64,000 bases of DNA, from IMG/VR virus record IMGVR_UViG_3300049793_000365; one strand, given 5' to 3'. The position numbers were made by a program, and so were the translations under genes. Below the pieces are notes generated by a model. The model saw nothing but the letters and a program-made list of their open reading frames with translations, had not been told where the DNA came from and ran no database searches. The stretch is from an uncultured virus (IMG/VR IMGVR_UViG_3300049793_000365) (lineage: Duplodnaviria > Heunggongvirae > Uroviricota > Caudoviricetes). Shown piece after piece: positions 13,812 through 63,146 of the stretch. The number at the start of each line of letters is the position of its first letter. Position 1 is the stretch's first letter.

Positions 13812-14249
13812 ATGAAATATTTAAAATACTTTAAAGAATCAAATACTACTCCACCAATTTCTATATCAGAATTGACCAATAATATCAATCTATATAGCGA
13901 AGAGTTAAAATATGAGATATCAGAACTATCAGTGAGTTATAATAGTAGCAATAATGATTATCATCTAAAATTTGAAGTTGAATTACCAGAAGAAGAATAT
14001 AAGCAATTGGTTGATGCTTATGCAGGTAATGAGAGTCCAATAGACTATATAGTTTGGGATTTAGAAAAAACTATACAAGAGTCATTTATTAAGTTTAATA
14101 AAAGATATGGTTTTACCTCAGAAGATAACTCAAAGATATACATCGAAACCAATGATTATGCTTGGGAAGATTATAATGAATTGTTGGTTAAACCAAATAT
14201 AACAGTGTTTATGTATATTAAATATAACTTAGATAATGAAATACATTAG
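13812..14249 (+). CDS. leader-bearing acidic protein (putative internal head protein)
   Basis: Starts MKYLKYFKES. Confidence 0.7.
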   Translation: MKYLKYFKESNTTPPISISELTNNINLYSEELKYEISELSVSYNSSNNDYHLKFEVELPEEEYKQLVDAYAGNESPIDYIVWDLEKTIQESFIKFNKRYGFTSEDNSKIYIETNDYAWEDYNELLVKPNITVFMYIKYNLDNEIH

Positions 14250-14625
14250 AAAATTTGAATCCGAACTTAACCTATCTTCATTCTTAGAGGAAATGCTAAG
14301 TGATATTGAAGCTAAATTTGGCGTGACTATTAAATTCTTGGGTGACCACTCGGTACATCAGAGACAAAATAAAAGCCGTGTAGTTATTATAAGACTACCA
14401 AATAAAACAAACGGTACTATTGTTTTTACACTATCTGGTCAAGACTCGGATGAGAACCTTACCAAAGCTAATATAGACGATGCTATATCTGATTTGGAAA
14501 AAAAGACTCAGTTGTTAAAGGAGATAAAGAAAGTGATGCTGAAGTTAGAGGTAGAAGGATTTAGAACCCATATACAACCAGATAATTACGAATATCGTTT
14601 AACTGTAATTAAAAACAACGCATAG
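14236..14625 (+). CDS. leader-bearing protein, family A
   Basis: MKYIRKFESE; IKKVMLKLEVEGF. Confidence 0.7.
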   Translation: MKYIRKFESELNLSSFLEEMLSDIEAKFGVTIKFLGDHSVHQRQNKSRVVIIRLPNKTNGTIVFTLSGQDSDENLTKANIDDAISDLEKKTQLLKEIKKVMLKLEVEGFRTHIQPDNYEYRLTVIKNNA

Positions 14626-14643
14626 ATATTTCATATAATATCT

Positions 14644-14991
14644 ATGAATTTAATGCATAAATCTTCAAATCTTTATTTAAATCAACCCATAACTGTTCGG
14701 TGCCAGAATTATTCTACAACACTTGATGTTGATATATTCATTGGTAGCTATGGTGAGCTAAACTACGAAGTATCTCTTTTGTGTAGAGAGGATTATCAAC
14801 CAGAAGATAAAACATTACACATCTTCTGTATATCTGATAGTAATTGCGTAGTAAATCAATTGGATGATAGATTTAAGCTACATAAGGTGATAAATAGAGG
14901 CGAACTGAATCGCTCAAAATACTTCATTTTCATACACGAGGAACTATCTATACAAGAATATAGAGATAGTAAACTAAATGCTATGTTATAG
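14644..14991 (+). CDS. hypothetical protein, tagged
   Basis: Ends RDSKLNAML. Confidence 0.7.
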   Translation: MNLMHKSSNLYLNQPITVRCQNYSTTLDVDIFIGSYGELNYEVSLLCREDYQPEDKTLHIFCISDSNCVVNQLDDRFKLHKVINRGELNRSKYFIFIHEELSIQEYRDSKLNAML

Positions 14992-15005
14992 TTAATATAT
15001 ACACA

Positions 15006-15428
15006 GTGAAACATTTAAAATCATTCAACTCAATAAACGAAGCTACTAAATCCACCGTTGAGGATATCTTTGCTAATTTTTGCGAGAGATACGGTATGGA
15101 GATTGAGAAAGTAGGAGATGGTATACACCAACAACATAAACTATGGACATCTGGCGACTTTAAAGAGGAACCTATTATTGTTGATTGTAAATTCATTTCA
15201 TTATTAAACACTACTAAACTTAAGCTTGAACTAGAAGATAACACAGCGGCAGTATTGAGATTTGACTACATCAAGACCAGTAAAACCAATAAAGATAAAA
15301 GTGGTTATTTAAAATCAAATAAACACCAAATGTCAGCAACATTTAATAGAATGGTTAGCTTTCTAAGAAATGAAACAACTGATAGTGATATTCAAATCAT
15401 TAAAATATTCATTGAAATTTATATATAA
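15006..15428 (+). CDS. leader-bearing protein
   Basis: TAATATATA then GTG; MKHLKSFNSINEA. Confidence 0.7.
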   Translation: MKHLKSFNSINEATKSTVEDIFANFCERYGMEIEKVGDGIHQQHKLWTSGDFKEEPIIVDCKFISLLNTTKLKLELEDNTAAVLRFDYIKTSKTNKDKSGYLKSNKHQMSATFNRMVSFLRNETTDSDIQIIKIFIEIYI

Positions 15429-15431
15429 CAC

Positions 15432-15872
15432 ATGAAACACTTAGTAACTTTCGAAGGATTTGAAATAAATGAGAACTCATCAAATATTTGGGTTCAGGGT
15501 GGTGTTCTTTTAATAAAGGGTGCGATAGTGAATGGTAAACATAGATTATATGCAACAAATATCCGAAATCTAATCCAATTGGATAGATTTAAAAAAGATA
15601 ATTCTAAAGGAGTTCCGGCTAAAATGGCTATACTTGGTGATGACTTTTGGAGATTAGTACACGAAGATGGAAGGATAGTACCCAAAAAGATAGCTTGGAG
15701 AAACGATGCGTCTTTAACTAAAATGTTAAGATTTAAAAACCAATCAATAAGCGTTGTTTTAAATAATAATAAAACACCAAGGCATTGGGAATCATTACAA
15801 TTTAATAACGTACATACGATGCTTTCTAAGATAGGATTCTATCTTGAGACAATTGAAAACATAGAGTGGTAA
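15432..15872 (+). CDS. leader-bearing protein
   Basis: TATATATA upstream; MKHLVTFEGFEINEN. Confidence 0.7.
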   Translation: MKHLVTFEGFEINENSSNIWVQGGVLLIKGAIVNGKHRLYATNIRNLIQLDRFKKDNSKGVPAKMAILGDDFWRLVHEDGRIVPKKIAWRNDASLTKMLRFKNQSISVVLNNNKTPRHWESLQFNNVHTMLSKIGFYLETIENIEW

Positions 15873-16282
15873 TGAAATACATTAAAACATTTGAGGGTTT
15901 GATTAAGCAGATGCATCAAGATATCAAGTCTATTAAAACGAAGTATGAAAAAGAGATAGCTGACTGTTTATCTGTTATTGAACATGAACATGATTTGAAG
16001 CTTAAATCAATTGGTGAATACTCATTCGAGTACACAGCAACCGACTTAAATATACTACCAACACCAGAATTACAAAGGGATTTTAAATTAACAAAGAAGA
16101 AATTAGAAGCTCTTGGTCTTGATATCGAAGTTAGTTTTTCTTTAGGAGATGGTATAAAACATTCGAGTGGTACTAAAACTTCCTTTTTAAGAGGCAACTT
16201 AATTGACCTTGAACATAATAATATTAAACAGATTATCAGAGGTATCACTATTAAGATACTCGATATGGAAGATATTGACTAA
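15872..16282 (+). CDS. leader-bearing protein, family B
   Basis: TAATG coupling; MKYIKTFEG; EIADCLSVI...KKKLEALGL. Confidence 0.7.
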   Translation: MKYIKTFEGLIKQMHQDIKSIKTKYEKEIADCLSVIEHEHDLKLKSIGEYSFEYTATDLNILPTPELQRDFKLTKKKLEALGLDIEVSFSLGDGIKHSSGTKTSFLRGNLIDLEHNNIKQIIRGITIKILDMEDID

Positions 16283-16297: not shown

Positions 16298-16537
16298 ATG
16301 ATAGCAATGTGTACCAAAACAATCCACGTATCAGTTGGTGGAATTGGTGTCTACGATAAAACCGAAACATTTACAAACAATGAAATATATGAGTGCATAC
16401 GTAGTATGCGTGGTGGTACTGTTGTTGTAAAGAAGGAAAATAGACAGATAAAAGTAGATAGCCAAACTTTCGATACTCACTTCACTTCGATAGAAGAGAT
16501 AAGAGACGAGAAGCTAAACGCATTACTTACTTCTTAA
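16298..16537 (+). CDS. hypothetical protein, CxCIK...FxxYF family, tagged
   Basis: FDTHFTSIEEIRDEKLNALL. Confidence 0.7.
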   Translation: MIAMCTKTIHVSVGGIGVYDKTETFTNNEIYECIRSMRGGTVVVKKENRQIKVDSQTFDTHFTSIEEIRDEKLNALLTS

Positions 16538-16931
16538 ACTGTTCGTGGTGTTTAATGAAATCCCAAATTGGCATTGTTTCATCCGATAAACCTTCTGCTC
16601 TGGCTTTAACCATCGCATCTTTTAGTGTCTGATTATATCTTGGTGATTTAGCAGACTTTATAACCGATTCAACATATCCGCGGCATAATTTCAATTCGCC
16701 ATTCTGTATTTTATCCTGAACTTCTTCATGTGAAAGAGATTCTTCAGACATCATCATATGACATGGAAACAATACCTCATTATTCATAAAATCTTTGAAG
16801 TCTCCTGTTGTATAATCAGCTAACCAACCAGGTATAGAATTTTTAGAGAATGGACATTCTTTACAAACCTTAGCACACACGTTAACTTGTGATTCACATA
16901 TAAAATCCTTAAATGTAGTTATCTTTTTCAT
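16527..16931 (-). CDS. leader-bearing Cys/His metal-binding protein (DUF6283-like)
   Basis: MKKITTFKDFICES; CKECPF...PGWL...FPCH...LCRG. Confidence 0.6.
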   Translation of the reverse strand: MKKITTFKDFICESQVNVCAKVCKECPFSKNSIPGWLADYTTGDFKDFMNNEVLFPCHMMMSEESLSHEEVQDKIQNGELKLCRGYVESVIKSAKSPRYNQTLKDAMVKARAEGLSDETMPIWDFIKHHEQFKK

Positions 16932-16964: not shown

Positions 16965-17345
16965 ATGTTACATCTAAAATTATACGAAGATTTCAATAAA
17001 TCATTTAAACCAGATGATGAGTTAAAAGAGCTTATTAAAATTGAGCTTGAAAACGATTTAAATATTGAAGACATTGAGTTTAAACCACTATTAAATAACG
17101 TCTATACAACAAAATTGACAATAGATATCGAATGGGAAAGAACTAATGTAGAGGATAATGATGAGTTTGATAGATTTAGAACTAAGATAATGGATCAGAT
17201 AAAGTCTAAACTAACACTTCTTGGTAGAAAAACGAATTTTAGAATATCTATGATGTCTAAAGATGAATGGCCAAAGAAATGGATATTCGGTTATAACAAC
17301 AACACTCACACATTAACTGTAACATTCTACATAATATTCGAGTAA
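16965..17345 (+). CDS. leader-bearing protein
   Basis: TATATATA upstream; MLHLKLYEDF. Confidence 0.7.
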   Translation: MLHLKLYEDFNKSFKPDDELKELIKIELENDLNIEDIEFKPLLNNVYTTKLTIDIEWERTNVEDNDEFDRFRTKIMDQIKSKLTLLGRKTNFRISMMSKDEWPKKWIFGYNNNTHTLTVTFYIIFE

Positions 17346-17852
17346 TTACTCAACTAAGCCGTGCTTGCGTAGGATCTTATTAACTTCCGATTTAACGGTA
17401 TACATAACCATCTTACTCGGTTTGTAATCCATATCTAAGATATAAGTACAACGCTGTCTGACATTATGTTGCCAACCTGGTCCTGGTCTATTCGAAATAT
17501 CGTGGAATACATTCCAAACATGGTCTGATATAATTCGCCACTCTCTTATATTTTTAATCTTATCATCGATATTTACCCAGTTACCATCTTCCGCGCAGTA
17601 TATGTTTTCCTTATCATATGCTAATAGTGGTTTTAAGCCATGTGGGCAATTAAAAGCACAATGGACATATGTTCGCCTATCCAACGACAATTCTTTGCTG
17701 GTGACAGGTATTCTGACTAAATCTAATTTGGGTAAATCTCCGAAGAACTTCTTTTCCTCAGGACTCCAATAACACCAAGAATGACCATCCTGGTGGACTT
17801 CACCGTAGCAAAGAGGATTGTGCATTTCATTGAAGCTTTTAAGATGTTTCAT
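17346..17852 (-). CDS. leader-bearing protein
   Basis: TAATATATA upstream; MKHLKSFNEM. Confidence 0.7.
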   Translation of the reverse strand: MKHLKSFNEMHNPLCYGEVHQDGHSWCYWSPEEKKFFGDLPKLDLVRIPVTSKELSLDRRTYVHCAFNCPHGLKPLLAYDKENIYCAEDGNWVNIDDKIKNIREWRIISDHVWNVFHDISNRPGPGWQHNVRQRCTYILDMDYKPSKMVMYTVKSEVNKILRKHGLVE

Positions 17853-18494: not shown

Positions 18495-18758
18495 GTGTAC
18501 GATAAAGATAAATTCAGGTTGATTTTTAAGAGTCTTAATTTTAAACAAGACCGAAAAGACCCAGACATATACATCAGGAGCAAAGCTTACTTCGAGCTTA
18601 GAGACGATATGGTTCGTTACTACATAAAGGGTAGTGATACACCATCACATAAAGCTACTACAACACACGCAATTGAAGAACTATATAACGCATTATTTAA
18701 GAAATTTCAAGACATAATCAGAGGTAATAAACTGGATGATTTGTTTGGAGATTGTTGA
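18495..18758 (+). CDS. hypothetical protein, tagged
   Basis: Ends RGNKLDDLFGDC. Confidence 0.65.
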   Translation: MYDKDKFRLIFKSLNFKQDRKDPDIYIRSKAYFELRDDMVRYYIKGSDTPSHKATTTHAIEELYNALFKKFQDIIRGNKLDDLFGDC

Positions 18759-19202: not shown

Positions 19203-19229
19203 AATTAAGGGGCTAAATGCCCCTTAATT
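19203..19229. terminator. bidirectional terminator
   Basis: AATTAAGGGGC-TAAAT-GCCCCTTAATT between convergent genes. Confidence 0.75.
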
Positions 19230-19625
19230 TTTTAATATCCTATCGATTTTACTATCGCGCTTTTCATCGGTTGATTTACCACCCAATAATGAATTATCTG
19301 CGAAATAGTCAAGCAAACCAGCCTTCTCAGCATCAGCAAACTGTGGAATATCGTGTTCCTTATTATTCATTTTGATTACATCAATGAGAGTTTGGAAGTC
19401 ATTACCATATTCATCTTTTACAACTTTTATCTCTTCTTTTAGATCCTTAAACCACTGAGGGTTTTCTTGCTTTAGATACCCGAAGACAACTGGTAGTTGA
19501 TGTGTCATAAAGTCTTCATTGTAGATATGATTGAGCATATCATAGATGTCATCCATGTTTGTTGACATTCGACCATCAGCTAATGAAAACAATTGTAGGG
19601 TTGTGAATTTTTTAATTTTAGTCAT
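19224..19625 (-). CDS. hypothetical protein, tagged
   Basis: Ends RDSKIDRILKN. Confidence 0.75.
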   Translation of the reverse strand: MTKIKKFTTLQLFSLADGRMSTNMDDIYDMLNHIYNEDFMTHQLPVVFGYLKQENPQWFKDLKEEIKVVKDEYGNDFQTLIDVIKMNNKEHDIPQFADAEKAGLLDYFADNSLLGGKSTDEKRDSKIDRILKN

Positions 19626-20055
19626 TGTTTTTGGTTTTACTTTCTAATAATTCATTCAATGATTCATCACGCTTATCTTGCTTTGTTGAATTTCGCTCTT
19701 TCATAAACGTGTCCATTTTAGCGTGTTTCAATCTTCTGTCGCAATAAATATTCTCACCTATCCATCTGGTTGGTATAAAGTACGAATCACCATTAGCAAG
19801 TTCTACTAATGACTCGGCTGTTTCCCACTTTTTAATTTTAACGACTGCTGCTGAATAACCAGAATATGTCTGATTTGCTTTTTTTATTGCTTCTAATAAA
19901 TCTCTAAACCACATATCTATACTATCTGGTTTGACTCTAACCAAGTCATCCACTTCCCATTTCAATAAGTACTCTCTGCGTTCTTTTCTAAGAACCCAGT
20001 TTATCAAAATTATTAGAGCTATTACTGCGGCTGTTATTCCTATAAACCAATACAT
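19618..20055 (-). CDS. N-anchored membrane protein, tagged
   Basis: N-terminal TM; RDESLNELL. Confidence 0.75.
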   Translation of the reverse strand: MYWFIGITAAVIALIILINWVLRKERREYLLKWEVDDLVRVKPDSIDMWFRDLLEAIKKANQTYSGYSAAVVKIKKWETAESLVELANGDSYFIPTRWIGENIYCDRRLKHAKMDTFMKERNSTKQDKRDESLNELLESKTKNND

Positions 20056-20088: not shown

Positions 20089-20553
20089 TTAATTCTTCTT
20101 ATCAAATGAAATACCTAAGCACTTCATAACTATGTTATCGATATTTATAAAGGCACTTTTGCTCTTCAACTCTTCTGTTTTTTGTTTCATTCTCTCCTCC
20201 AACATAGTGATATCCCATCCATATACATTATCGATGTGAATATATCCTTGTTCGTGTTGAGAATCGCGCAATGATATCCAAGCAACAATTATCTTAATCT
20301 CCCGTTTATAGGGAATCAACTTCTTATTCAATCGCTTAACATCAGATATGAATTCTGAATAGTCTACATCACTTTCTGTTCTAAATACATCACCATTTGA
20401 TTTATACAGCTTGTGTTCAGTTATATTAAATCCATGTCTATCATTCAATATTTGAATAGTAGCCTGGTCGATAGTTTTAGCGAAAACACTAAACATTTTT
20501 TCCTTTACTGATAATACTCTTAATTTTAATATTTCGAGTGTCCAACTTGTCAT
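20089..20553 (-). CDS. hypothetical protein (true start probably MFSVF)
   Basis: In minus-strand operon; annotated start overlaps upstream gene. Confidence 0.6.
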   Translation of the reverse strand: MTSWTLEILKLRVLSVKEKMFSVFAKTIDQATIQILNDRHGFNITEHKLYKSNGDVFRTESDVDYSEFISDVKRLNKKLIPYKREIKIIVAWISLRDSQHEQGYIHIDNVYGWDITMLEERMKQKTEELKSKSAFINIDNIVMKCLGISFDKKN

Positions 20554-20857
20554 AGATATTTAAAATTTTAACTGCGTCATAGTAATCAATACCGGGAATC
20601 TGATTATCATATGGATCCATTCCATAGTTTCTCACGACTGTAAACTGAACAAGAACCCCATCATTCTTTTTAATCTCAAGACTTCTTTCATATGACTCAA
20701 TGACTCTGAATTCTTCATCAGTGTTCATATCGGTAACCGTCCAATGTTCACCGTAAAAGGTTTGCCCAAGTGCGTATTGCTCAAACTTCTTATGTCTGAG
20801 ATAGCCCTTTCTCTTTACTATTATTTCTTCTTTCTTATCGAATCTTGACATAATCAC
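20489..20857 (-). CDS. hypothetical protein, tagged
   Basis: RNIKIKSII near C-terminus. Confidence 0.7.
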   Translation of the reverse strand: MIMSRFDKKEEIIVKRKGYLRHKKFEQYALGQTFYGEHWTVTDMNTDEEFRVIESYERSLEIKKNDGVLVQFTVVRNYGMDPYDNQIPGIDYYDAVKILNIYDKLDTRNIKIKSIISKGKNV

Positions 20858-21119
20858 CGTCTGATTTTTCTTTTTCTATATCATCATAGAATAATCCATA
20901 TCTAAACCAATAAACACCATCGTTGGCTTTTACCTTATAGATATGACAACTTTTACTGACATAGTAAGGACCAGTAAGAAAGTGACAACGCTCGATTGAT
21001 TCGACTTTCTTACCATTTTCCGTTGCCCATTCTTTTATTTCAGTCTCATAACTGACATTTATAGCAGCTAAAATCAGCACTGCTACAATGAATATTACTA
21101 CATACATAAATACTTTCAT
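20835..21119 (-). CDS. N-anchored membrane protein
   Basis: Hydrophobic N-terminus. Confidence 0.7.
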   Translation of the reverse strand: MKVFMYVVIFIVAVLILAAINVSYETEIKEWATENGKKVESIERCHFLTGPYYVSKSCHIYKVKANDGVYWFRYGLFYDDIEKEKSDGDYVKIR

Positions 21120-21430
21120 AATAAATCTTTTATTTGTTTTTCTCGGTGTGCTTGTTTAAAACTATTATAACCCCAATCATCTTTGTTGTTGTCACTAACT
21201 GTCCAGATACAGTGCTGAATCGTCACTTTATATGATTGAAACTCTGCGTCTGTTAGAGAGTCATACTTTTTGTTTAGGAAGTTGTAAAATGTTTGTACAT
21301 CTGAATCATCAACACCGCGTATTTCTTGAAATCTCATATAGAGATAATTCATATAACCTTCTTCTCTGTATTCCAAGAGTTGTTTTCTGGTGAGTACGAA
21401 TATAAATCTATCTCTTTCGAAATCTGACAT
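21116..21430 (-). CDS. hypothetical protein, tagged
   Basis: TATATTTA 4 nt before ATG; ends REKQIKDLL. Confidence 0.75.
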   Translation of the reverse strand: MSDFERDRFIFVLTRKQLLEYREEGYMNYLYMRFQEIRGVDDSDVQTFYNFLNKKYDSLTDAEFQSYKVTIQHCIWTVSDNNKDDWGYNSFKQAHREKQIKDLL

Positions 21431-21467
21431 ACCGTAAATATACGGACTTTATTTAATATATACAAAT

Positions 21468-21878
21468 ATGAAGCACATAAAATTATATGAAGATTTTGAC
21501 TTTGACAAAGAGTTTAAATCAGAAGATGATAGACATAGAAAAGCATTAGCTGATTTAAATCAAAAAATGATTAAAGTAGTTGATACTTGTATGTTTGTTT
21601 TAACCGAAGATTATGGCTTTGAAGTATTTTATTCACCAAGCTACACTGATATTGGGTACTCATTGGATGAAGATATTATACTATCACAAGATTTAGTGAG
21701 CGAGTTATTATCAGCGAATAAAAAGCTAATTAAAGAGTTAAATAGACAAATACTTATAACTGGACATAATTCTGGTGATAGATATGACTTCCAAGAAGTT
21801 GCTTTAACCGATATAGAATGGAAACCTTATTTAAATAAGAAGTATAGCATCGAATTAAAAATTGATAAGTTTAAATGA
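21468..21878 (+). CDS. leader-bearing protein, family B
   Basis: TAATATATA upstream; MKHIKLYEDF; DTCMFVLTEDYG...ANKKL. Confidence 0.7.
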   Translation: MKHIKLYEDFDFDKEFKSEDDRHRKALADLNQKMIKVVDTCMFVLTEDYGFEVFYSPSYTDIGYSLDEDIILSQDLVSELLSANKKLIKELNRQILITGHNSGDRYDFQEVALTDIEWKPYLNKKYSIELKIDKFK

Positions 21879-54410: not shown

Positions 54411-54672
54411 AGAAATTATACTTGAATATATCATCAGACCGATGCGACATGGTAGATTTACGATGAATAAGTTTGCCTTTCTCATTAATTTATTAACTTT
54501 GATTAGTTGTAAATTAGTTTGGTATTTACTTTTAGTGAATATTTTATTCTGTGTGGTAAATTATCTTATAGTTTTAATGGAGTATAAAAGTAATAAACCA
54601 GAGTTAACACCGACTGAGATAGAAATTGAAGAAAGAAATAAACGAATTAAGAAAGTATTATCGCGATGGTAG
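54397..54672 (+). CDS. membrane protein, tagged
   Basis: RNKRIKKVL. Confidence 0.65.
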   Translation: MLTVKEIILEYIIRPMRHGRFTMNKFAFLINLLTLISCKLVWYLLLVNILFCVVNYLIVLMEYKSNKPELTPTEIEIEERNKRIKKVLSRW

Positions 54673-55296: not shown

Positions 55297-55930
55297 GAAG
55301 ATTATTTATCTTTCTATTTCTTAGTCCTTCTTTTATTATTTTTATAACTTCTTCTTGGTATTTTGGTTTACCGTAGCCTTTAGTTTTGATTTCATCATTA
55401 GATACGTAAGCATATTTCTTACGACCTTCGAAGACTATCATTTCAACTATATCAAAGTCATACACTAAATCAATATCTAACATATCGTAGTCCTTATTTG
55501 CGAAATATATTGTATCAGTATCGATGTATAGTATATTACTTTCGTTTTTCTGTATCAACTCATCATAGAATTGATACATATATTGTGATATGAGACCAAT
55601 TATTCTATATGATTTCTCATTACCCAGTTTTGAAAATATACTATTTACATATTTCTTCAATTCTAAATAAGTATTTATTTCATTTTTCTTAAGTGTTCCG
55701 CGATTATCGATAAAGTACTGGATCTTCTCATATATCTCTTGTGGTATATCTATGTGGTCTAAGAAGGAATTATCTCTTAGCTTTAAAATAATGCTTGGAT
55801 ATAAACATACGAAGGTAACCTCATATGCTTGTTCTAATAATATACCTTTAGTGAATGGATTTAACCAATCATAGCCACCCATGTGATTACCACTATGTAT
55901 ATCTATATTTTTAGCATAGCGTTCTATCAT
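55286..55930 (-). CDS. miniature family-B DNA polymerase-like protein (palm/fingers only), tagged
   Basis: TFVCLYPSII (motif A, Asp absent), KKYVNSIF (B), YIDTDT (C), KKYAY, KTKG; ends RNRKINNLLKE. Confidence 0.75.
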   Translation of the reverse strand: MIERYAKNIDIHSGNHMGGYDWLNPFTKGILLEQAYEVTFVCLYPSIILKLRDNSFLDHIDIPQEIYEKIQYFIDNRGTLKKNEINTYLELKKYVNSIFSKLGNEKSYRIIGLISQYMYQFYDELIQKNESNILYIDTDTIYFANKDYDMLDIDLVYDFDIVEMIVFEGRKKYAYVSNDEIKTKGYGKPKYQEEVIKIIKEGLRNRKINNLLKE

Positions 55931-56310
55931 TCTACGATGCTACTAATTTTAGTATCTCTAATTCCGGTTGGACTATTTCTATCAATCTTATCTATCCAGC
56001 TATAAATTACTGCCGCGAGTTGAACAAGCTCTTCTCTTCGTTCTGTATCATTTCTACATGATATGACCTCAGCTAGTTCTTCTACGGCTATATGTGACCA
56101 GGTAACTTGATTTCTCTGTGATGCGAGTTCACACATTAACCTTGCCCTTGTTTCTGTTGGGATTTCATATTCTTCACACATTCTATCTGGTGAACATCCG
56201 CCCTTTCTGGACATAAGTATATTATCTACTGATGGGTGATTCTGTAATCCCCATTTAAGTATCTGATTTTCATACTCTTGTAAAATATCGTTGATAATTT
56301 GATTTTCCAT
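55927..56310 (-). CDS. MazG-like nucleotide pyrophosphohydrolase, tagged
   Basis: IAVEELAEV...REELVQLAAV; RDTKISSIV. Confidence 0.65.
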   Translation of the reverse strand: MENQIINDILQEYENQILKWGLQNHPSVDNILMSRKGGCSPDRMCEEYEIPTETRARLMCELASQRNQVTWSHIAVEELAEVISCRNDTERREELVQLAAVIYSWIDKIDRNSPTGIRDTKISSIVE

Positions 56311-56380: not shown

Positions 56381-56800
56381 ATGGTAATAAAAGGCTTCAA
56401 CACAAGAGAAAGTAGAACTCTTACATTCCGAATGGGTGACCCATCAATGGATGTTGACTCACATGGTAATCCAGTGGATAATAATTATATCGTAATTATA
56501 AATCGCAAAGATTGTAAATACGTTGTTAAAAACGGTACGAAATACATAGACTCAAAGGGTGTTAAACAAGCAGTTGTGTTGGGTTATGGTGGTACTTTTT
56601 ATGGATATGGTGTGAAGACTCTAAAGAAGAGTAAATACCCAAAATACATCAAAACAAAATTTGATGGTAGAATGGTTACTGAGTGGTATGAGAGTAGATT
56701 TTATGCTGTTAAAGACGGTAGAGTTTATACAACAACTCAGAGAAGCTTTGTGTCACTTGATGTGCAAAGAGAATCAAGATTAGAGGAACTATTAACATGA
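56381..56800 (+). CDS. hypothetical protein, tagged
   Basis: TTTG-N20-TATATTTG (56345-56376); RESRLEELL. Confidence 0.75.
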   Translation: MVIKGFNTRESRTLTFRMGDPSMDVDSHGNPVDNNYIVIINRKDCKYVVKNGTKYIDSKGVKQAVVLGYGGTFYGYGVKTLKKSKYPKYIKTKFDGRMVTEWYESRFYAVKDGRVYTTTQRSFVSLDVQRESRLEELLT

Positions 56801-58046: not shown

Positions 58047-58604
58047 ATGATTCCCGAAATTAAAACCATGCAACGCGACCTTAAGTTAGGTCAGATATCA
58101 GGGTCAAATGTTATCACACTTGACACTAAAGGACTTCCATCTGGATTATATTTCTGGTGGAAAAAACGAAAGATAATAAAGTCACTCTTGAAAAAGGGTT
58201 ATATATTGTCTGGTTCACGAGCATTGAAATGTTATCGTGTAAATGGTAATGAAGTTTTAAATAGAGAAGCTAGAGATTGGGACTTTTTGGTAACGAAGGA
58301 TCAGTTTATGGATATCTGTAAAGAACAAGGGATATATGACTTTGATTTCAATGCCAAGTCTTATCAAATAAACAAACATCTGATGGCGTTTGCTAATTCA
58401 TATTCAAGTGATACTATTATTGTACCTACTAACATTGAGCTATTCATTAAAGATACACTACCTGATTATGTTGAACATGATGGTATTAGATTCGCTAAGT
58501 TATCTGATATAATTGATGCTAAAATGGACTTAATGGGCAGAGATTCTAAGCATAAATTAGATTTGAATAATATTTATGTTAACGTACACGGTAATGACCT
58601 TTGA
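58047..58604 (+). CDS. Pol-beta-superfamily nucleotidyltransferase-like protein, N-terminal tag
   Basis: ILSGSRAL...RDWDFLV...KHKLD; RDLKLGQI at aa 10-17. Confidence 0.6.
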   Translation: MIPEIKTMQRDLKLGQISGSNVITLDTKGLPSGLYFWWKKRKIIKSLLKKGYILSGSRALKCYRVNGNEVLNREARDWDFLVTKDQFMDICKEQGIYDFDFNAKSYQINKHLMAFANSYSSDTIIVPTNIELFIKDTLPDYVEHDGIRFAKLSDIIDAKMDLMGRDSKHKLDLNNIYVNVHGNDL

Positions 58605-58863
58605 TGAATACGTTATAAATAAAGTATCAGTTACGTTAAACCTTTGGTATTCTAAAGGTTCAAAATCATCTGGTGTTATCAGTGATAATGTTATTAATAA
58701 GTTAGCATCAAAGGTAGATAACTTTGGTAAATATTACATAGTAACGAGTATGTCATTCCCAGTTGACTTGATTGCTACCGATGTGCCACCAAGTGGGTCT
58801 ATTGTTATAAGTTTTACACCGGATGAATTTAGAAACAAGCAATTGGTTTCAATATTAAAATGA
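58576..58863 (+). CDS. hypothetical protein, tagged
   Basis: Ends RNKQLVSILK. Confidence 0.65.
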   Translation: MLTYTVMTFDEYVINKVSVTLNLWYSKGSKSSGVISDNVINKLASKVDNFGKYYIVTSMSFPVDLIATDVPPSGSIVISFTPDEFRNKQLVSILK

Positions 58864-59174
58864 CATTCTTAATATCCATATTTTTTAACTATATAAGTCA
58901 GTTCAAATGGTATCTTGATTCTGTTATATGGTTGTTCATACGACTATTAGAAGGTGTTACTGGTTTAATAGTTGGTGTAATAGCAATTATACTCGCGATT
59001 GGTTGGGTTGTGTTATTGGGTTCAGCTATTATTCTAATTATTTGTGTAGTACTCTCACCTAAATTAATAGCAAACTATTATGATTGTGGGTACTATAACT
59101 TTTTATTTATATTAAGCGTTCCAATTGGATTATTTTTAGCTTTCTGTCTAACAGAGTATCTTGAGAATAAATGA
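58860..59174 (+). CDS. multi-TM membrane protein
   Basis: Largely hydrophobic. Confidence 0.65.
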   Translation: MTFLISIFFNYISQFKWYLDSVIWLFIRLLEGVTGLIVGVIAIILAIGWVVLLGSAIILIICVVLSPKLIANYYDCGYYNFLFILSVPIGLFLAFCLTEYLENK

Positions 59175-59449
59175 AACTAAGAAAGAAGAAATATCATCTA
59201 CCACCGGATGGCTATCTATCAGATGGTTCACAGCATTACTATAAGATAGCAAATGGTAAAATTATACACATTGTTAATAGTAAAAAATCGCCATTGATTA
59301 ATATTTTATATGATATCAATAGTGATAATCTACGTAATCTGTATAAAATAGATGCTGAGTTATTCGACATTATGTTGAGAGAAGCTATTATTAATTTGGG
59401 ATTGCTTAATGAAATAAGGGATATAAATATTAACGAAATTTTAAAATAA
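59171..59449 (+). CDS. hypothetical protein, tagged
   Basis: Ends RDININEILK. Confidence 0.7.
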   Translation: MKLRKKKYHLPPDGYLSDGSQHYYKIANGKIIHIVNSKKSPLINILYDINSDNLRNLYKIDAELFDIMLREAIINLGLLNEIRDININEILK

Positions 59450-59454: not shown

Positions 59455-59898
59455 ATGTTTTTTTACGAAGTAGGTTACACGTCATATGAAGAAGCACCAA
59501 TGTACACATTGATGTCTTCTAAGGAATATACACAAGAAGAATTCGATACATTGGTTGCTGACTGTATGATTGAAGTGTACTATATAAAATCAGCAGAGTG
59601 GAAAAAAAGACTCGAAGAGGAAGGTTATGTTAAACCAGTGATTGATGAAGATGATGATGAAGAAGAGTATGACCATTACTCTAAGGTTGATAATTTATTA
59701 ACAGATACAATTGAAGCTTTGGTTAGTAAACACGGATTCAGTGAGCCTGATTTTAAATGTAGATTTCAACCGTTTGGCTGGGGTTCTATTAAAAATGTTG
59801 AAGACTGGAAAGGACAAACTGATAGTCAGTTAGATTTTATTCGTGAGCGTTTCAGAATAAATAAGAGAGACAATGATATCGATAACATTAGTAAATGA
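59455..59898 (+). CDS. acidic hypothetical protein, tagged
   Basis: Ends RDNDIDNISK. Confidence 0.7.
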   Translation: MFFYEVGYTSYEEAPMYTLMSSKEYTQEEFDTLVADCMIEVYYIKSAEWKKRLEEEGYVKPVIDEDDDEEEYDHYSKVDNLLTDTIEALVSKHGFSEPDFKCRFQPFGWGSIKNVEDWKGQTDSQLDFIRERFRINKRDNDIDNISK

Positions 59899-60143
59899 GA
59901 CTAAAAGTAGGCGATATTCTATATGTAAGAAAAGAAGGTACCATCCATTCAGATATACCCTTTGAAGTAATTCAAGTCAGAAGTAAAACAAGATTTGATG
60001 GTGATGATATCGCAATCAAATGGGTAGATGGTCATAATTGGTGGTGGGGTCAGATAGGAGAAACAGAACCTTGGACACTTATGTTTATGAGTGAATCAGA
60101 ATACAACAGAAATAAAAAAATTAATGAGTTGATTAAACTTTAG
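59895..60143 (+). CDS. hypothetical protein, tagged
   Basis: Ends RNKKINELIKL. Confidence 0.7.
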   Translation: MRLKVGDILYVRKEGTIHSDIPFEVIQVRSKTRFDGDDIAIKWVDGHNWWWGQIGETEPWTLMFMSESEYNRNKKINELIKL

Positions 60144-60432: not shown

Positions 60433-60936
60433 ATGATTAATAATTATATTTACCTAATCCATCATAAGTTGGATAAAAGCAAATTAAAACTTTTATTCAT
60501 GATATTATTAATATCACCTATGTCACTCATTTCATTATGTGATGGTAAAACATCTATGTTAATATGTGTTACTTTTTTAGTATTAGTGACATTACCCGTA
60601 ACACTATCGAGAATGACATACATAACTGGTTCACTTAAATTCAATAAGAATCTTTATGGTGCTTTACCAAGAGTAGGTGATGTATATGTGATGGCTAAGA
60701 ATACTATCTTCGATGATGATAATGGCTTCTTTTGGCAAGTATCTAAAAATAGTGAAATAAAAGTAACATTAATACCGGATGATAATAAAGAATACCCTAC
60801 TGAATACTTTTTCTTTTGTGAGATTAATGGTGTAATACGAGTTATTGATTTCATTAAGTTTAGAAGCAGACTTATAGATAAGTCTGATTATAGAAATTCT
60901 AAACTAAAAAAACTCGGACGAAAATTTGGATATTAG
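60433..60936 (+). CDS. two-TM membrane protein, tagged
   Basis: RNSKLKKLG. Confidence 0.7.
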   Translation: MINNYIYLIHHKLDKSKLKLLFMILLISPMSLISLCDGKTSMLICVTFLVLVTLPVTLSRMTYITGSLKFNKNLYGALPRVGDVYVMAKNTIFDDDNGFFWQVSKNSEIKVTLIPDDNKEYPTEYFFFCEINGVIRVIDFIKFRSRLIDKSDYRNSKLKKLGRKFGY

Positions 60937-60960
60937 TATTTTTATCCATATATTTGTAGA

Positions 60961-61224
60961 ATGAAATCAGTAATAGGCGTAAATGGTGAAGAAATTAAAG
61001 CAAAGGAAGGTTCTGCCGTTGAGCCATTTCACGCTTATATTTCTCTAACATTAGCTATGTTAAAAGAACCATTTGTGTCTTCTGATGCTAAGTATCTAAT
61101 TATACAAAGCTCATTTAGTTACTTAAAAGATATGGGCTATTCTGATGAACAAATCGAAGCATACATTAAGCCTTTGCGTGAGGTCGTAAAGAAGAATATT
61201 GTTATTAACAGTTTTATGGGATAA
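60961..61224 (+). CDS. hypothetical protein
   Basis: TATATTTG 4 nt before ATG. Confidence 0.7.
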   Translation: MKSVIGVNGEEIKAKEGSAVEPFHAYISLTLAMLKEPFVSSDAKYLIIQSSFSYLKDMGYSDEQIEAYIKPLREVVKKNIVINSFMG

Positions 61225-61226
61225 TC

Positions 61227-61748
61227 ATGGACGAAACAAGAAAACAAGAAATCATAAAAGCACACACTTTAGGTAGTAGAACCGAAGAGGAACTTAAAGT
61301 TATTGCTAAAGACCTTTATAACAACAAGATTTTTTCTGATAGGCATTTAAGCAACCCATCAGATTTACAAATGGTGTTTATGGTGATGATGTTTATGGGG
61401 CCTAAGGCACCAGAGCCACCAAAATATCCAGTAGATGATATAAAAGATAAACAGGATTCTCGTGCTAACGCGATGTATGATGTACTTCAGCGCGATGCTG
61501 ACCAAAAGAAATACGAAGAGGATTTGAATATCTATTATCCATTCGAGTGCGAATGTTATAGAGAAAACTTCTTGGGTAAGATTGGTTTCGTTTATGAATA
61601 TCTTGATAGCCCCAACGTTTCACCGCGTGGTGTTAATGGTTACCCATGCTTCTTTTCGGTTCGCTTCTTAAATAAGGAAGACACCGCTATGATGTTTGAG
61701 TTCTACGAGAAGTATAAAGCTATTCGTGAGCAAGCTGATAGTTTCTAA
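61227..61748 (+). CDS. phage hypothetical protein
   Basis: GFVYEY...PRGVNGYPCFFS. Confidence 0.75.
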   Translation: MDETRKQEIIKAHTLGSRTEEELKVIAKDLYNNKIFSDRHLSNPSDLQMVFMVMMFMGPKAPEPPKYPVDDIKDKQDSRANAMYDVLQRDADQKKYEEDLNIYYPFECECYRENFLGKIGFVYEYLDSPNVSPRGVNGYPCFFSVRFLNKEDTAMMFEFYEKYKAIREQADSF

Positions 61749-63079
61749 CTATCACACTCTCTACAATCTACAGTACCGTTACCCTCACAAGAGCCGCATT
61801 CGTAGTTACCAGAACCCCAACAGGTTGTACATTCTTTATCACCGCTACCTGAGCATTCATCACATTTGAATGTTCCGTCTCCGCCACATCCAGAACAATC
61901 TTGTTTACCTCTACCATCGCAGTCAGAACATTCCTCTTTTTCGTTATCAGGATCTTTACCACTACCATCACAGGTTGAACAATCTTCTTCGCCACCACCT
62001 TCGCACTCGTGACAATCGAATGTACCTTCACCAGAACACTCAGAACAATTAATTTCACCGCGACCATCACAATCATCACAATCAATTGTACCTTCACCAT
62101 CACATGGACCGCAATTAACAGTTGAGCTACCACCGCATGACTCACAAGAGCCATTACCACCATCGGTATCTTCTAATTTATATGTATAATCAAGTGAGTC
62201 ACTATTTGATAGTTTACCATCATACGGTGAGTAATATTTAAGAGTATCTAAATATGGATAGTAACTGAATTCACCATGATATTCTAATTCAACAACTATG
62301 ATACCTGGTTCAATGCTGTTACCATCAACTTCTCTTGATTCACCCTCAACGGCTACACCATCTTTAAGTATATTCGTATATTCAGAGCTATCTTGTTCTT
62401 CTTTGTATATGTAACCATTTTGTTCAGCAAATTTAATAAACAGGTTTACATCAGAATCGTTTATTGTATAGACTCTATCCATAAATTTTCTACCATCAAT
62501 ATCAGTCCATAATAATGCTCTTGCTCGAATTCTATCGCTATCATTCTTATAAACTATTAATGATACTTGATTTGGATTCTTAGTGTAAATATCAAAATAC
62601 TTTTGACACTTTTTATATCTCATACAAGAGCCAAGAAGTGAACCACCTTCTCCTAAATCATAGTTATCTTCATCGTATGCTGATTTTATCTCTTCACCAC
62701 TTAGTATTTCAAAGAATTCAAAAGCATCACCTTTTATTATCTTAACATTCGACTTAAAATCATTAACGAATAATTCTATATCTCTATCAGTTGTTTCTAT
62801 ACCAACTTTATCTAATAATCTCTTAGCAAACCTACCAATTTTAATCTCACTTCTTTTATCATTCTTACTGTTTTCCGGTTTAAATGAGATAATATCATCC
62901 TTAGATGTTATATTGATATAATTAGTATTAACATCCACTTCTGTATTGTTCAATTTAAGAATTTCATCAGCAAGTGGTGACTTCATATTTATAAGAATAT
63001 CTCTGAAATCGTTGGAATATGTCAATTTAGCTTCTAAAAGAAGCTGTTCTGTGATGAATTCGTAATATGGACTAATCAT
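61745..63079 (-). CDS. leader-like protein with long CxxCxGxG (DnaJ-type zinc finger) repeat tail
   Basis: MISPYYEFITEQLLLEA; GSCMRY...ARALLW...FMDRVY domain; 12 CxxC units; TATATATA upstream. Confidence 0.75.
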   Translation of the reverse strand: MISPYYEFITEQLLLEAKLTYSNDFRDILINMKSPLADEILKLNNTEVDVNTNYINITSKDDIISFKPENSKNDKRSEIKIGRFAKRLLDKVGIETTDRDIELFVNDFKSNVKIIKGDAFEFFEILSGEEIKSAYDEDNYDLGEGGSLLGSCMRYKKCQKYFDIYTKNPNQVSLIVYKNDSDRIRARALLWTDIDGRKFMDRVYTINDSDVNLFIKFAEQNGYIYKEEQDSSEYTNILKDGVAVEGESREVDGNSIEPGIIVVELEYHGEFSYYPYLDTLKYYSPYDGKLSNSDSLDYTYKLEDTDGGNGSCESCGGSSTVNCGPCDGEGTIDCDDCDGRGEINCSECSGEGTFDCHECEGGGEEDCSTCDGSGKDPDNEKEECSDCDGRGKQDCSGCGGDGTFKCDECSGSGDKECTTCWGSGNYECGSCEGNGTVDCRECDS

Positions 63080-63146
63080 TGAAGTCTGGTTCGTTTTTAC
63101 TATATATAAATTTGCAAATTTGCCTATGAATCCGTATATTTACGCT

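Follow-up and report, generated by a model that had tools for sequence, protein, structure and literature searches.

Two mutually exclusive peptide labels tied to promoter class in a predicted clade of huge T4-related Bacteroidota phages

In the T4 head, according to PMC3012670 and PMC5694885, diverse internal proteins share only a capsid-targeting sequence of 10-20 residues, and the proteases of T4, phiKZ and SPN3US cleave after Glu. A system with two labels was not found described in print in a literature search. The window, which is the whole stretch of 64,000 nucleotides analysed here (IMG/VR record IMGVR_UViG_3300049793_000365), is part of the ~0.7-Mb genome of a giant soil phage from a clade of huge, T4-related Bacteroidota phages. 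One or the other of two short peptide labels was found on about half of its small genes.

The gene set was obtained with a greedy caller, giving 154 genes that cover 94.8% of the window, and was brought to 156 by hand refinement. A leader of about 10 residues with the consensus M-K-[HY]-[LI]-K-x-[FY]-[EN]... stands at the start of 24/156 genes; after the first seven positions comes N-E-S, E-x-F or K-[IL]-F-E-S. When a matrix on residues 2-11 was applied to the 156 N-termini the scores split cleanly, with 23 genes reaching at least 10.7 bits and the runner-up only 5.7, and the 24th leader (45194), which has a one-residue deletion, was added by eye. Leader genes with a late box at -12 are (strand, first residues and bits in brackets) 13177..13785 (-, MKYLKIYESF, 19.9), 15006..15428 (+, GTG start, KHLKSFNS, 22.3), 16527..16931 (-, MKKITTFKDF, 13.7), 17346..17852 (-, MKHLKSFNEM, 23.5), 24345..24923 (-, MKHLHKFENF, 22.6), 29437..29844 (-, MKHIKSFKLI, 16.9), 33258..33953 (+, MKYLKRFNES, 21.8), 34536..34898 (+, MKHLKPFNEN, 21.8), 36039..36242 (-, GTG start, IHLKTFEEL, 19.4), 36738..37136 (-, MKRIKKFNES, 18.2) and the weak variant 39725..40105 (+, MKHLKPIFET, 10.7). 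A late box also precedes 13812..14249 (+, MKYLKYFKES, 19.8), 15432..15872 (+, MKHLVTFEGF, 22.9), 16965..17345 (+, MLHLKLYEDF, 19.2), 21468..21878 (+, MKHIKLYEDF, 20.5) and 28429..28800 (+, MKHLKKFNEN, 23.1), and lies further upstream of 25015..25941 (+, MRYLKNMNSF, 16.6; boxes at 32-39 nt) and 45194..45526 (+, MKIKSFNEH, one residue missing; 34 nt). The remaining leader genes are 14236..14625 (+, MKYIRKFESE, 16.8) and 51540..52016 (-, MRYLKSYKMF, 18.3), both second in a late unit, 15872..16282 (+, MKYIKTFEGL, 19.6), 21875..22255 (+, MKYIKQYEAV, 16.3), 52013..52489 (-, MKHIKLYEGF, 22.1), for which the internal Met behind TTTATATATAC was taken as start, and the exception 48743..49042 (-, MKYLRRFFNS, 16.1), which has an early-type box.

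The second label is a tag with the consensus R-[DNE]-x-K-[IL]-x-x-[IL]-[LI] near the C-terminus, carried by 55/156 genes, a count that includes motifs ending exactly at the C-terminus. Above 9 bits and within the last 30 residues it was found in 49/156 genes versus 0.4 expected from shuffled proteins; there are 59 matches at any position, and 49 of these lie 15 residues or fewer from the C-end. In its longer form the motif reads [IL]-R-[DNE]-x-K-[IL]-[NDE]-x-[ILV]-[LI], mostly ending 0-3 residues before the C-terminus (158/211 cases). On the minus strand the tagged ORFs are 407..751 (15.9 bits), 748..990 (18.5), 990..1184 (19.3), 1190..1432 (18.6), 5157..5519 (19.1), 5793..6038 (19.7), 19224..19625 (22.4), 19618..20055 (15.8), 20489..20851 (19.3), 22750..23061 (19.6), 26411..26710 (16.9), 29968..30408 (19.1), 42554..42775 (21.4) and 55286..55930 (22.6), and, with an early box of their own, 21116..21430 (14.6), 23339..23623 (13.3) and 26707..26973 (15.8). 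On the plus strand they are 1756..2142 (weak, 13.7), 2139..2426 (22.7), 3351..3830 (14.7), 4080..4319 (15.5), 12671..12964 (21.8), 18495..18758 (16.9), 26947..27297 (16.0; tag 11 residues from the end), 27276..27569 (19.7), 31015..31320 (19.5), 31304..31666 (19.2), 37629..38096 (17.2), 39478..39714 (17.0), 41791..42036 (20.9), 44101..44268 (21.1), 44234..44551 (18.1), 48502..48753 (17.1), 50961..51197 (19.4), 51190..51543 (19.7), 54006..54410 (17.7), 54397..54672 (15.9), 54886..55296 (weak, 9.7), 58576..58863 (16.1), 59171..59449 (19.9), 59455..59898 (15.9), 59895..60143 (19.7) and 60433..60936 (14.9), and, with their own early box, 2444..2704 (22.5, a single-gene unit), 30593..31018 (13.5), 34154..34507 (20.2), 40331..40561 (18.0), 41261..41452 (17.0), 48171..48509 (17.2) and 56381..56800 (16.6). 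An AAACTT...TATAA box lies upstream of 22304..22486 (+, 18.9) and 55927..56310 (-, 17.2). Three more come after leader genes on the same (plus) strand: 34922..35188 (21.0), whose own early-type box overlaps its first TTG, and 14644..14991 (10.5, with leader genes on both sides) and 16298..16537 (18.8), which have no recognised early box and are possible exceptions to the promoter link.

Leader and tag were never found together (0/156 genes), and none of the 24 leader genes is tagged (hypergeometric P=9.7e-6), which bears out the statement in the sequence-only reading that no leader ORF ends in the tag. The same reading had noted an internal tag copy in 25015 only; that copy is the degenerate R-G-K-K-L-K-E-L-L, and a better one is internal to 27553-28302. 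Both labels act at the protein level, as synonymous codons vary freely; the leader codon positions mix AAA/AAG, CAT/CAC, TAT/TAC, TTA/CTT/ATT/ATA and TTT/TTC, and at the tag's invariant Arg all six codons occur, in roughly window-wide proportions. The proteins that bear them are mostly unrelated ORFans. All-against-all BLASTP of the 156 window proteins gave 7 pairs, with jackhmmer from 5 seeds no more than two small groups formed among the leader proteins, and 146/150 tagged proteins of LR756502.1 are without a Pfam family.

The promoter link was assessed with boxes whose timing names, early and late, are inferred from motifs as guesses. The late box, AATATATA, sits 4 nt ahead of the start codon of leader genes, and as AATATATA-N4-ATG gave 11 matches in the window versus 0.43 expected. 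Tagged genes lie in operons downstream of Bacteroidota-type TTTG/TAnnTTTG promoters, and the early box TTTG-N17-22-TANNTTTR-N4-ATG gave 15 matches versus 0.18; the promoter motifs exceed the shuffled expectation 25- to 80-fold. For AAACTT-N14-18-TAYAA there were 8 matches versus 2.5 expected, a number reached by 1/100 shuffles. A late box at canonical spacing precedes 19 genes (17 leader, 0 tag, 2 unlabelled), and an early box at canonical spacing precedes 23 (1 leader, 10 tag, 12 others); Fisher's test of label against own box class gave P=1e-8 for leaders and P=8e-4 for tags. Counted by transcription unit, there are 23 leader, 5 tagged and 13 unlabelled genes in late units, while early units have 1 gene with a leader, 37 with a tag, 3 with a loose tag and 41 without a label. 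The 'late' box AATATATAA, 38 nt before 50961, is found inside the preceding gene. The small, tagged ORFan proteins are encoded behind promoters of host (early) type or of AAACTT type, and leaders occur with the late box on mostly unrelated proteins.

Late boxes had also been said to abut divergent early or middle promoters at six places, and five of these pairs hold: 21431..21467 (37-bp gap), where the early box (-) of the tagged 21116 gene and the late box (+) serving 21468 stand back to back; 32122..32187, with late-like (-) and early (+) promoters; 37137..37215 and 63080..63146, each with late (-) and early (+) promoters; and 29845-29887, whose middle-like box has no downstream plus-strand gene before 30593. 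The sixth, 49055-49095, has no TATATA box. Two divergent late boxes overlap in the 26-bp gap 13786..13811. Next to 63080..63146, position 63147 is the most likely start of a 2OG-Fe(II) oxygenase gene. Late boxes serve unlabelled genes as well, namely a 431-aa ORF (6087..7382, -) with a canonical box and distant relatives in 19 viral loci, and a 444-aa Cys-rich ORF (61745..63079, -) with a box 29-31 nt upstream, the latter having a 41% identical homologue in G001, a 436-kb IMG/VR contig.

A contingency check in three relatives showed that exclusivity and the promoter link hold genome-wide. G001 has 541 genes with 55 leaders, 33 tags and 0 both (P=0.026); the 508-kb IMG/VR contig G004 has 772 with 57, 138 and 0 (P=8e-6); and the published 642-kb LR756502.1 has 984 with 132, 155 and 0 (P=2e-11). 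Pooled with the window, the 2,453 genes include 268 with a leader, 381 with a tag and none with both. The 735-kb LR756501.1 scores no higher than background (3 leaders and 6 tags among 1,026 genes) and relies on different motifs. A further control set, 1,374 six-frame ORFs from 19 viral loci on 17 contigs that had been retrieved through another protein, contained no leader and three tags; two of these tags are one ORF present on two contigs, and one of the two contigs (L015) is itself a relative. LR756500.1 and G005 have leaders without tags, and the labels are therefore not one paired two-channel code as first proposed. Judged from the sequences the two labels are independent and modular, and their mutual exclusion is best explained by the tie of each to a single temporal class.

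Modularity is seen in homologues with and without each label, as a comparison of orthologues for label gain or loss brought out. The leaderless 40856..41233 (+), in an early unit, joins the 52013 leader family by jackhmmer (7.8e-23) and aligns with exactly the leader missing, which points to label loss or gain. Among homologues of the DUF7736 protein 19224..19625 (PF24875, then linker and tag helix), four close ones keep the tag and three distant ones break off immediately ahead of it. Its AF2 model has residues 1-111 at pLDDT ~90, 112-124 disordered and the tag as a lone helix at 125-131. In general the tag is pictured as a short helix that a flexible linker joins to small ORFan proteins. We read it as a detachable, short linear C-terminal docking motif, which would dock all early tagged proteins to one common partner. 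A first guess at its use is a C-degron for timed handling by a protease or unfoldase; the second guess is recruitment to an infection-specific assembly. Two results count against any named function: no tag receptor was found, and the occurrence of Clp genes in the phages does not follow that of the tag. The second destination first suggested for early tagged proteins is hypothetical, since the tag may be a degron or a docking motif of another kind and no address at all.

For the leader a capsid-targeting propeptide of T4 type is plausible by analogy. The leader would dock its cargo in the prohead, onto the core of scaffold and protease, where the prohead protease would remove it by a cut after the conserved Glu, and the cargo would stay in the head and enter the next host with the DNA. 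The mRNAs of leader genes would probably be leaderless, because the late box lies 4 nt before the ATG. A hydrophobic-x-Glu at residues 5-13 was found in 104/132 leaders versus 180/852 other proteins of LR756502.1 and in 42/55 versus 104/486 in G001, i.e. in 76-79% of leaders. In the available 64 kb no head genes of the window's own genome were seen; G001 has T4-like head genes (Gp23, 1e-29; Portal_T4, 5e-59; a T4-type terminase) and an S77-like protease, matched below the Pfam cut-off (22.5 bits vs 27), fused to a scaffold in which [YF][LIV]AE[NH] is repeated 11 times. In that genome the capsid, portal and protease-scaffold genes have the late box in front of them, and DNA ligase has the early box. 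That late genes with a leader are packaged, as originally suggested, is a good inference by analogy, plausible but unproven.

Several points weaken the capsid-targeting reading. The leader proteins are acidic (median pI 5.2-5.4, 9-20% basic), whereas T4 internal proteins are basic. Their cargo includes ordinary enzymes, which are odd for a capsid: an HD hydrolase (13177..13785, HD phosphohydrolase-like, matches PF01966 and a PHROG phosphohydrolase), a glutamine amidotransferase, a pterin dehydratase and a cyanophycin-synthase N-domain. In the poor AF2 model of one leader protein (mean pLDDT 58.6) the leader is merged into a long helix and no detached peptide is seen. We also know of no precedent for 132 different packaged proteins. 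The exceptions to the promoter link, one leader gene with an early-type box and two or three tagged genes within late units, count against it as well. The whole explanation, with capsid targeting by the leader and docking by the tag, is given a probability of about one half.

Two short terminal peptides mark proteins encoded in the window, and their distribution follows promoter class. The leader, an N-terminal peptide of about ten residues (M-K-[HY]-[LI]-K-x-[FY]), was scored with a matrix of residues 2-11 of obvious members applied to 156 N-termini, and the scores split into 23 N-termini at 10.7 bits or more and all others at 5.7 bits or less. The leader of the gene at 52013 was recovered after shifting its start to an internal Met behind a late box, and 45194, a variant with a one-residue deletion, was added by eye, giving 24 leaders in the window. 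The tag, with the C-terminal pattern R-[DNE]-x-K-[IL]-x-x-[IL]-[LI], scored above 9 bits within the last 30 residues of 49 of the 156 genes compared with 0.4 expected from shuffles, and was present in 55 once the motif was allowed to finish at the last residue; 49 of the 59 tag matches at any position lay within 15 residues of the C-end. Both matrices were trained on the window and validated on independent genomes and controls. The labels were mutually exclusive, as the sequence-only reading had claimed, with no window gene carrying both (P=1e-5).

The late box A-A-T-A-T-A-T-A, with its last base 4 nt before the start codon, gave 11 exact matches against 0.43 expected, and the early box, TTTG followed after 17-22 nt by TAnnTTT[GA] and ending 4 nt before ATG, gave 15 against 0.18. 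At exactly this spacing 13 late boxes, beginning at -12, and 20 early boxes were counted. The Bacteroidota sigma-A consensus has TTTG at -33 and TAnnTTTG at -7, about 19 nt apart, and the early boxes conform to it. Both spacings imply that the first gene in most units is read from an mRNA that is leaderless or nearly so, and unit starts with the 4-nt spacing include 13785, 15006, 21430 and 38470. The boxes are called late and early from their place in G001, a 436-kb IMG/VR relative, where the capsid, portal and protease-scaffold genes follow the AATATATA-type box and DNA ligase follows the early box; the predicted expression timing of leader and tag genes comes from these promoter motifs. The start of 18074-18574 (-) is probably 18427, directly behind a full early promoter at 18425-18462, which would abolish its 80-nt overlap with 18495-18758 (+).

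The claim that promoter class tracks the label was put to a contingency test in the window, and the association held. Nineteen genes had their own late box at canonical spacing, of which 17 carried a leader, none a tag and two no label, while the 23 genes with their own early box comprised one leader gene, ten tag genes and 12 others (Fisher P=1e-8 and 8e-4). Counted by unit, late units held 23 leader, five tag and 13 unlabelled genes and early units one leader, 37 tag, three loose-tag and 41 unlabelled genes (P=8e-13 and 2e-4). In the published uncultured phage LR756502.1, 213 genes had a late box within 40 nt; 63 of these carried a leader and four a tag. Other parts of the sequence-only reading fared unevenly. 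The additional promoter class AAACTT-N14-18-TAYAA was weak as a pattern (8 occurrences against 2.5 expected, a count reached by one of 100 shuffles); four of the eight end 4-6 nt before a gene start. Five of the six divergent promoter pairs that it had listed stood and one did not; such back-to-back pairs sit in gaps as short as 26-37 bp.

The window has a G+C content of 32% and about 156 small genes on both strands, called with our own greedy codon-score caller under the standard code and with starts refined by hand, so that 94.8% of it is coding. Transcription units are short, about 71 for 156 genes, and interleave on both strands. A Pfam scan of all 156 genes returned few families, among them two DNA methylases, a 2OG-Fe(II) oxygenase, an HD hydrolase, DUF6717 and DUF7736, together with an L7/L12-like and an RNA polymerase alpha-CTD-like domain. 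The latter (PF03118, 9e-15) lies in 10838-12286 (+), which is 26% identical (E=2e-21) to its neighbour 9816-10841 (+); both paralogues show helix-turn-helix hints and may be phage transcription factors. The former, a ribosomal L7/L12 C-terminal domain (PF00542, 3e-7), occupies the N-end of 50507-51004 (+), whose G001 homologue lies at L150:17968-18405; ribosomal protein S21 is also present in G001. A tRNA with anticodon CUA, which would read TAG, was found at 39183-39255 (+) (ARAGORN 'Pyl'; Rfam tRNA 67.9 bits). The window shows no sign that TAG is recoded by this suppressor-like tRNA: TAG is the stop of 34 of the 156 genes, and the standard code gives 95% coding. Upstream of 52618 on the + strand, at about 52560-52600, a GGTTCGAATCC-like stretch resembles a tRNA T-arm; ARAGORN and Rfam found no tRNA there, so it may be a remnant.

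Against the phage collection, megablast gave no match for window positions 6000-13000 and tblastn none for a 431-aa ORF. One of the window proteins has a record on a 711,805-bp contig, with a 69% identical homologue on a contig of 709,085 bp, and the window is therefore taken to belong to a phage genome about 0.7 Mb long. The best-conserved window protein in relatives (41% identical in G001) is the 444-aa late-box product of 61745-63079 (-), with a long run of Cys-x-x-Cys-x-Gly-x-Gly-like repeats near its C-end; a related-locus search with it confirmed no relative.

The window matrices were applied unchanged to four fetched whole genomes. G001 (541 genes) had 55 leaders and 33 tags, with no gene bearing both against 3.4 expected (P=0.026); LR756502.1 (642 kb, 984 genes) had 132 leaders and 155 tags, none together against 20.8 expected (P=2e-11); and G004, an IMG/VR relative of 508 kb (772 genes), had 57 leaders and 138 tags, none together against 10.2 expected (P=8e-6). 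The published LR756501.1 (735 kb, 1,026 genes), with a G+C content as in the other genomes, showed a background of three leaders, six tags and no gene with both. The labelled share of called genes was 22% pooled and 16-51% by genome. A DNA pattern of late box plus leader matched at least 124 stretches in IMG/VR; among the matches listed, flanks held additional leader ORFs beyond the pattern, up to six in 3 kb, and tags occurred in ten of the loci. The leader pattern was found at 57 places in LR756502.1, compared with 1 for the reversed control, and at 13 in LR756500.1, compared with 0, and not in LR756501.1, Lak-B5, Tenacibaculum phage pT24 or Chryseobacterium phage MA9V-2. A tag profile of 20 columns from 49 window tags had, at E<=1, 82 places in LR756502.1, 59 in G004, 38 in G003 (a fragment), 19 in G001, 10 in G002 and one in G005, and none in LR756501.1, Lak-B5, LR756500.1 or pT24. 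Since leaders occur without tags, leader and tag are separate systems.

The LR records are presumably huge phages of the 2020 Nature survey. G001 has a Gp23-type capsid (7e-29) and a T4-type portal (Portal_T4, 5e-59), both passing Pfam cut-offs, a T4-type terminase and a split family-B polymerase, and its capsid protein shares 70% identity with the LR756502.1 and LR745206.1 proteins, 51% with the LR756501.1 protein and 29% with the proteins of Lak phages. A Bacteroidota host is indicated by a G001 protein that combines SprB repeats with a type IX secretion signal domain. Only 9 of the 156 window proteins have any G001 homologue, so the labels are conserved while the labelled genes turn over. 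LR756501.1 lacks the labels of the window and has its own: D-P-Y-G-E-E-x-W closes 35 proteins and occurs 41 further times inside proteins, and 14 proteins begin M-I-[KR]-x-F-K-[LI]-F-E. These genes lie in loci L207-L243 (for example at 130076, 197630 and 500330), and in some proteins D-P-Y-G-E-E-x-W stands right behind the M-I-K-x-F-K-L-F-E start. This group of huge phages therefore seems prone to pervasive short terminal motifs, with clade-specific sequences.

As a tentative reading, with a probability of about 0.3, this clade of the largest known phages may address a large share of its proteome by short terminal peptides, a ticket for head cargo and a tail that docks early proteins on a hub. 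More than 100 late proteins per genome would bear a cleavable head ticket; made in advance and injected together with the DNA, they would form an arsenal that exceeds by far that of any phage studied. Early ORFans in similar number would plug by their C-tails into one phage-specific hub, either for timed destruction or in an infection compartment. New genes could join a channel by acquiring a promoter and a 10-residue label, and sister clades would follow this logic with peptides of their own, for instance D-P-Y-G-E-E-x-W in the 735-kb genome.

Selection on leader and tag acts on the protein: leader codons draw freely on synonymous and conservative sets, and the invariant tag Arg uses all six codons in about window-wide proportions. 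The pooled core of 211 tags from four genomes reads R-[DNE]-x-K-[IL]-[NDE]-x-[ILV]-[LI], most often preceded by Ile or Leu (38% of tags). One residue follows the hydrophobic pair in 92 of the 211 and 0-3 residues in 158, so that by position, and in an AF2 model, the tag is an exposed C-terminal motif. In this model of a tagged DUF7736 protein the domain (1-111, pLDDT ~90) is followed by a disordered stretch (112-124) and the tag as a lone helix (125-131, pLDDT ~55); four close DUF7736 homologues have the tag and three distant ones end just ahead of it. No Pfam family was found in 146 of 150 tagged LR756502.1 proteins, the others being a riboflavin kinase (with a C-terminal extension), a methylase (with a weak tag), DUF6011 and BtpA. 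Tagged genes concentrate at the ends of that genome, where the first 20 kb hold 19 of them and the last 42 kb hold 41. Tag-like motifs also occur elsewhere than at the C-end. In 27553-28302 (+) such a motif stands at residue 196 of 249 with an acidic-aromatic tail behind it, 12286-12687 (+) has one at residues 9-19, and the leader protein 25015-25941 (+) has a degenerate internal copy; gene fusion or extension may have left them behind.

As modelled, the tag has the anatomy of a short linear docking motif, predicted to have one common receptor. A narrower form of this explanation, not opposed to it, is that the tag is a C-terminal degron that delivers early proteins to a host or phage AAA+ protease of the Clp type for removal when the late programme starts. 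This is possible, if on balance doubtful. Its position at the extreme C-end of a disordered linker and its confinement to early-type units would suit a degron, and the label-carrying relatives encode a two-ring ClpA/B/C-type unfoldase, one to three ClpP paralogues and ClpS. The G001 set (L147:12044-14176, L150:1465-2031, L162:6455-7138, L165:5810-6535 and L158:9289-9573) comprises the two-ring ATPase, three ClpP paralogues and ClpS, beside an M28 peptidase and a retropepsin-like protease. Subtraction of proteins with a counterpart in LR756501.1 from G001 proteins shared with LR756502.1 and G004 left 68 candidates, including the three ClpP paralogues, ClpS, the retropepsin-like protease and the M28 peptidase; 59 of the 68 were scanned, leaving aside seven already characterised, the tagged and previously unscanned L164:3112-3612 and one spanning two loci. 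With 68 candidates being too many, no single receptor was picked. ClpP is, however, also encoded by the tagless LR756500.1, Lak-B5 and G005, and ClpS by the tagless G005. The ClpC-like ATPase is not supported as a tag-specific receptor because it is also present in the tagless LR756501.1. Across the 11 related records the presence/absence profile is inseparable from shared ancestry, and the residues behind the hydrophobic pair are polar and variable, unlike the known tail-end degrons. The degron remains a lead and not a finding.

The leader is a short N-terminal peptide common to mostly unrelated proteins. All-against-all BLASTP of the 156 window proteins gave seven pairs, and jackhmmer with five seeds placed leader proteins in only two small groups, four members each plus one unlabelled paralogue; one paralogue lacks exactly the leader. 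In LR756502.1 leader proteins are 45-797 residues long. A PHROGs family, mostly of unknown function, was assigned to 10 of 77 leader proteins, and where a known domain is present it begins behind the leader. For the leader protein 24345-24923, a search of the ESM Atlas returned nothing usable (best score 0.84).

By analogy, the leader is best filed as a putative new, very large variant of the T4 capsid-targeting principle. In T4, according to PMC3012670 and PMC5694885, a capsid-targeting sequence of 10-20 residues brings every internal head protein into the scaffold core and is the only thing in common to 'a highly diverse set', and the proteases of T4, phiKZ, 201phi2-1 and SPN3US all cleave after Glu. 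A hydrophobic-x-Glu site lies within residues 5-13 of 104 of 132 LR756502.1 leaders and 42 of 55 G001 leaders, compared with 21% of other N-termini. The head module was read in G001, the head genes of the window phage lying outside the 64 kb. The S77 protease match of G001 (22.5 bits, under the 27-bit Pfam cut-off) is fused to a repeat scaffold, with 11 [YF][LIV]AE[NH] repeats in G001 and nine in LR756502.1. Of the 19 genes with a canonical late box 17 carry the leader, and G001 has the same box ahead of its capsid, portal and protease genes; from these motifs a shared late timing is predicted. The cargo is acidic and includes some ordinary enzymes, both of which count against packaging, and so does its number, which would be unprecedented.

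Another late process served by the leader, either as a masked N-degron or as a ClpS/Clp handle after trimming, would accommodate these acidic proteins and enzymes, as would a conserved first helix in late-gene families of great age and divergence, with the first codons constrained by their leaderless mRNAs. ClpS is found in five of seven leader records (G001, G002, G004, G005 and LR756502.1), missing from G003, a fragment, and LR756500.1, and in none of four leader-free records, and the 68 proteins without a counterpart in the leader-free LR756501.1 include the M28 aminopeptidase. Positions 3, 4 and 7 are Tyr/His, Leu/Ile and Phe/Tyr, and an AF2 model of a leader protein, too poor to use otherwise, carries the leader into a long helix. 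Constraint on mRNA nevertheless leaves position-specific residues beside free synonymous codons unexplained, the ClpS profile is confounded by shared ancestry, and leader proteins are mostly unrelated and of very varied length, with one paralogue that lacks exactly the leader. Packaging agrees better with the T4-like head module and the hydrophobic-x-Glu site, and the two variants are jointly judged unlikely.

The tag could also be a literal address, an encapsulation or localisation peptide that sends early proteins to a phage-made assembly, compartment or capsid-like shell, which corresponds to the 'second destination' of the sequence-only reading. Encapsulin cargo-loading and microcompartment encapsulation peptides are short amphipathic terminal helices on a linker with varied cargo, and the tag appears to share this anatomy, being a short terminal amphipathic helix on a linker in many unrelated proteins; a sister phage with a different pervasive motif is what clade-specific address systems would give. 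Against this, no gene for a shell, compartment or receptor was identified, the tagged genes belong to the early class and are not co-expressed with the capsid, and the motif spans only about ten residues rich in charge; an address is judged quite improbable. Two further receptor ideas were rejected. A clamp-binding tail of the T4 gp45/PIP-like kind does not fit the C-tail of the G001 polymerase, which scores -1.7 on the tag matrix and lacks Arg-Asp-x-Lys, and no gp45-type clamp was found in G001 by a DNA_PPF match at E<=1. Type I secretion through the G001 ABC exporter does not fit either, the exporter having no homologue in the tag-rich LR756502.1; in tagless genomes it gave weak ATPase-domain matches only. 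That both labels are by-products of DNA-level cassettes, through recombination or regulatory sequences at gene ends or recent paralogy, agrees with the short units and with leaders starting 4 nt after the box at fixed spacing, but is close to refuted by synonymous codons that vary as elsewhere in the window, by conservative replacements (D/N/E, I/L, K/R, F/Y, H/Y) that alter the DNA, by labels common to genomes with so few homologous proteins, and by tags that also terminate the last genes of units and single-gene units.

Knowledge of huge phages comes almost entirely from metagenomes, and the function of most of their genes is not known. Two 10-residue labels that sort so large a part of a genome's genes into two classes give a handle on such ORFans, predicting virion proteins and their cut sites as well as early proteins that share a partner, and are easy annotation markers for this clade. 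Should the leader be a packaging signal, the protein cargo injected by these phages would far exceed any other known in complexity, and the leader could readily be used to load foreign proteins into large capsids. A tag that acts as a degron or an address would be the first signal described in a phage that sorts or times proteins post-translationally across the proteome. To our knowledge the tag has no counterpart in phages, and we know of no C-terminal targeting or docking peptide that its motif matches. Neither label is described in the accessible parts of the literature on huge and jumbo phages, late promoters and propeptides, and PMC7824862 does not use the terms capsid-targeting, N-terminal peptide or C-terminal motif.

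Among known systems the leader is closest to the capsid-targeting sequence on T4's internal proteins and on Alt, cut by the gp21 prohead protease. As far as that peptide is described in the sources available, both are short N-terminal peptides that are the sole shared part of diverse, fast-evolving proteins, both appear to be followed by a Glu with a hydrophobic residue two positions earlier, and both belong to genes in variable regions; T4 and this clade, by the genes of relatives, also share a T4-like capsid, portal and probable protease/scaffold. The likeness is to the description of the T4 peptide, and packaging and cleavage of the leader are predicted from genes alone. The scale differs, with leaders on 24 genes in 64 kb and on 132 of 984 genes in LR756502.1 compared with a handful in T4, and so do the acidic cargo with its ordinary enzymes and the late promoter that a leader gene often has of its own right at the ATG. 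The giant heads of phiKZ-like phages (phiKZ, 201phi2-1 and SPN3US), as described in PMC5694885, contain about 50 different proteins, with paralogous head proteins common, and are processed by a T4-related protease that cuts after Glu at small-residue-x-Glu. Their propeptides, unlike the leader, are mostly long (>100 residues) and do not share one short motif, and they belong to a different phage lineage and host phylum.

The promoters and the tag compare likewise with known elements. T4-type late promoters consist of a single AT-rich box, and the late box of the window is also one AT-rich element with no upstream partner; in contrast to both Bacteroidota sigma-A and T4-type late promoters, the boxes of the window end 4 nt before the start codon. 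Bacterial C-terminal peptides, such as ssrA-type degrons, adaptor tethering tails and encapsulin or microcompartment peptides, are transferable terminal helices on a flexible linker read by one receptor, and the tag appears alike in anatomy. It differs from them in being carried by 14-35% of a phage's genes, and only in early-type units.
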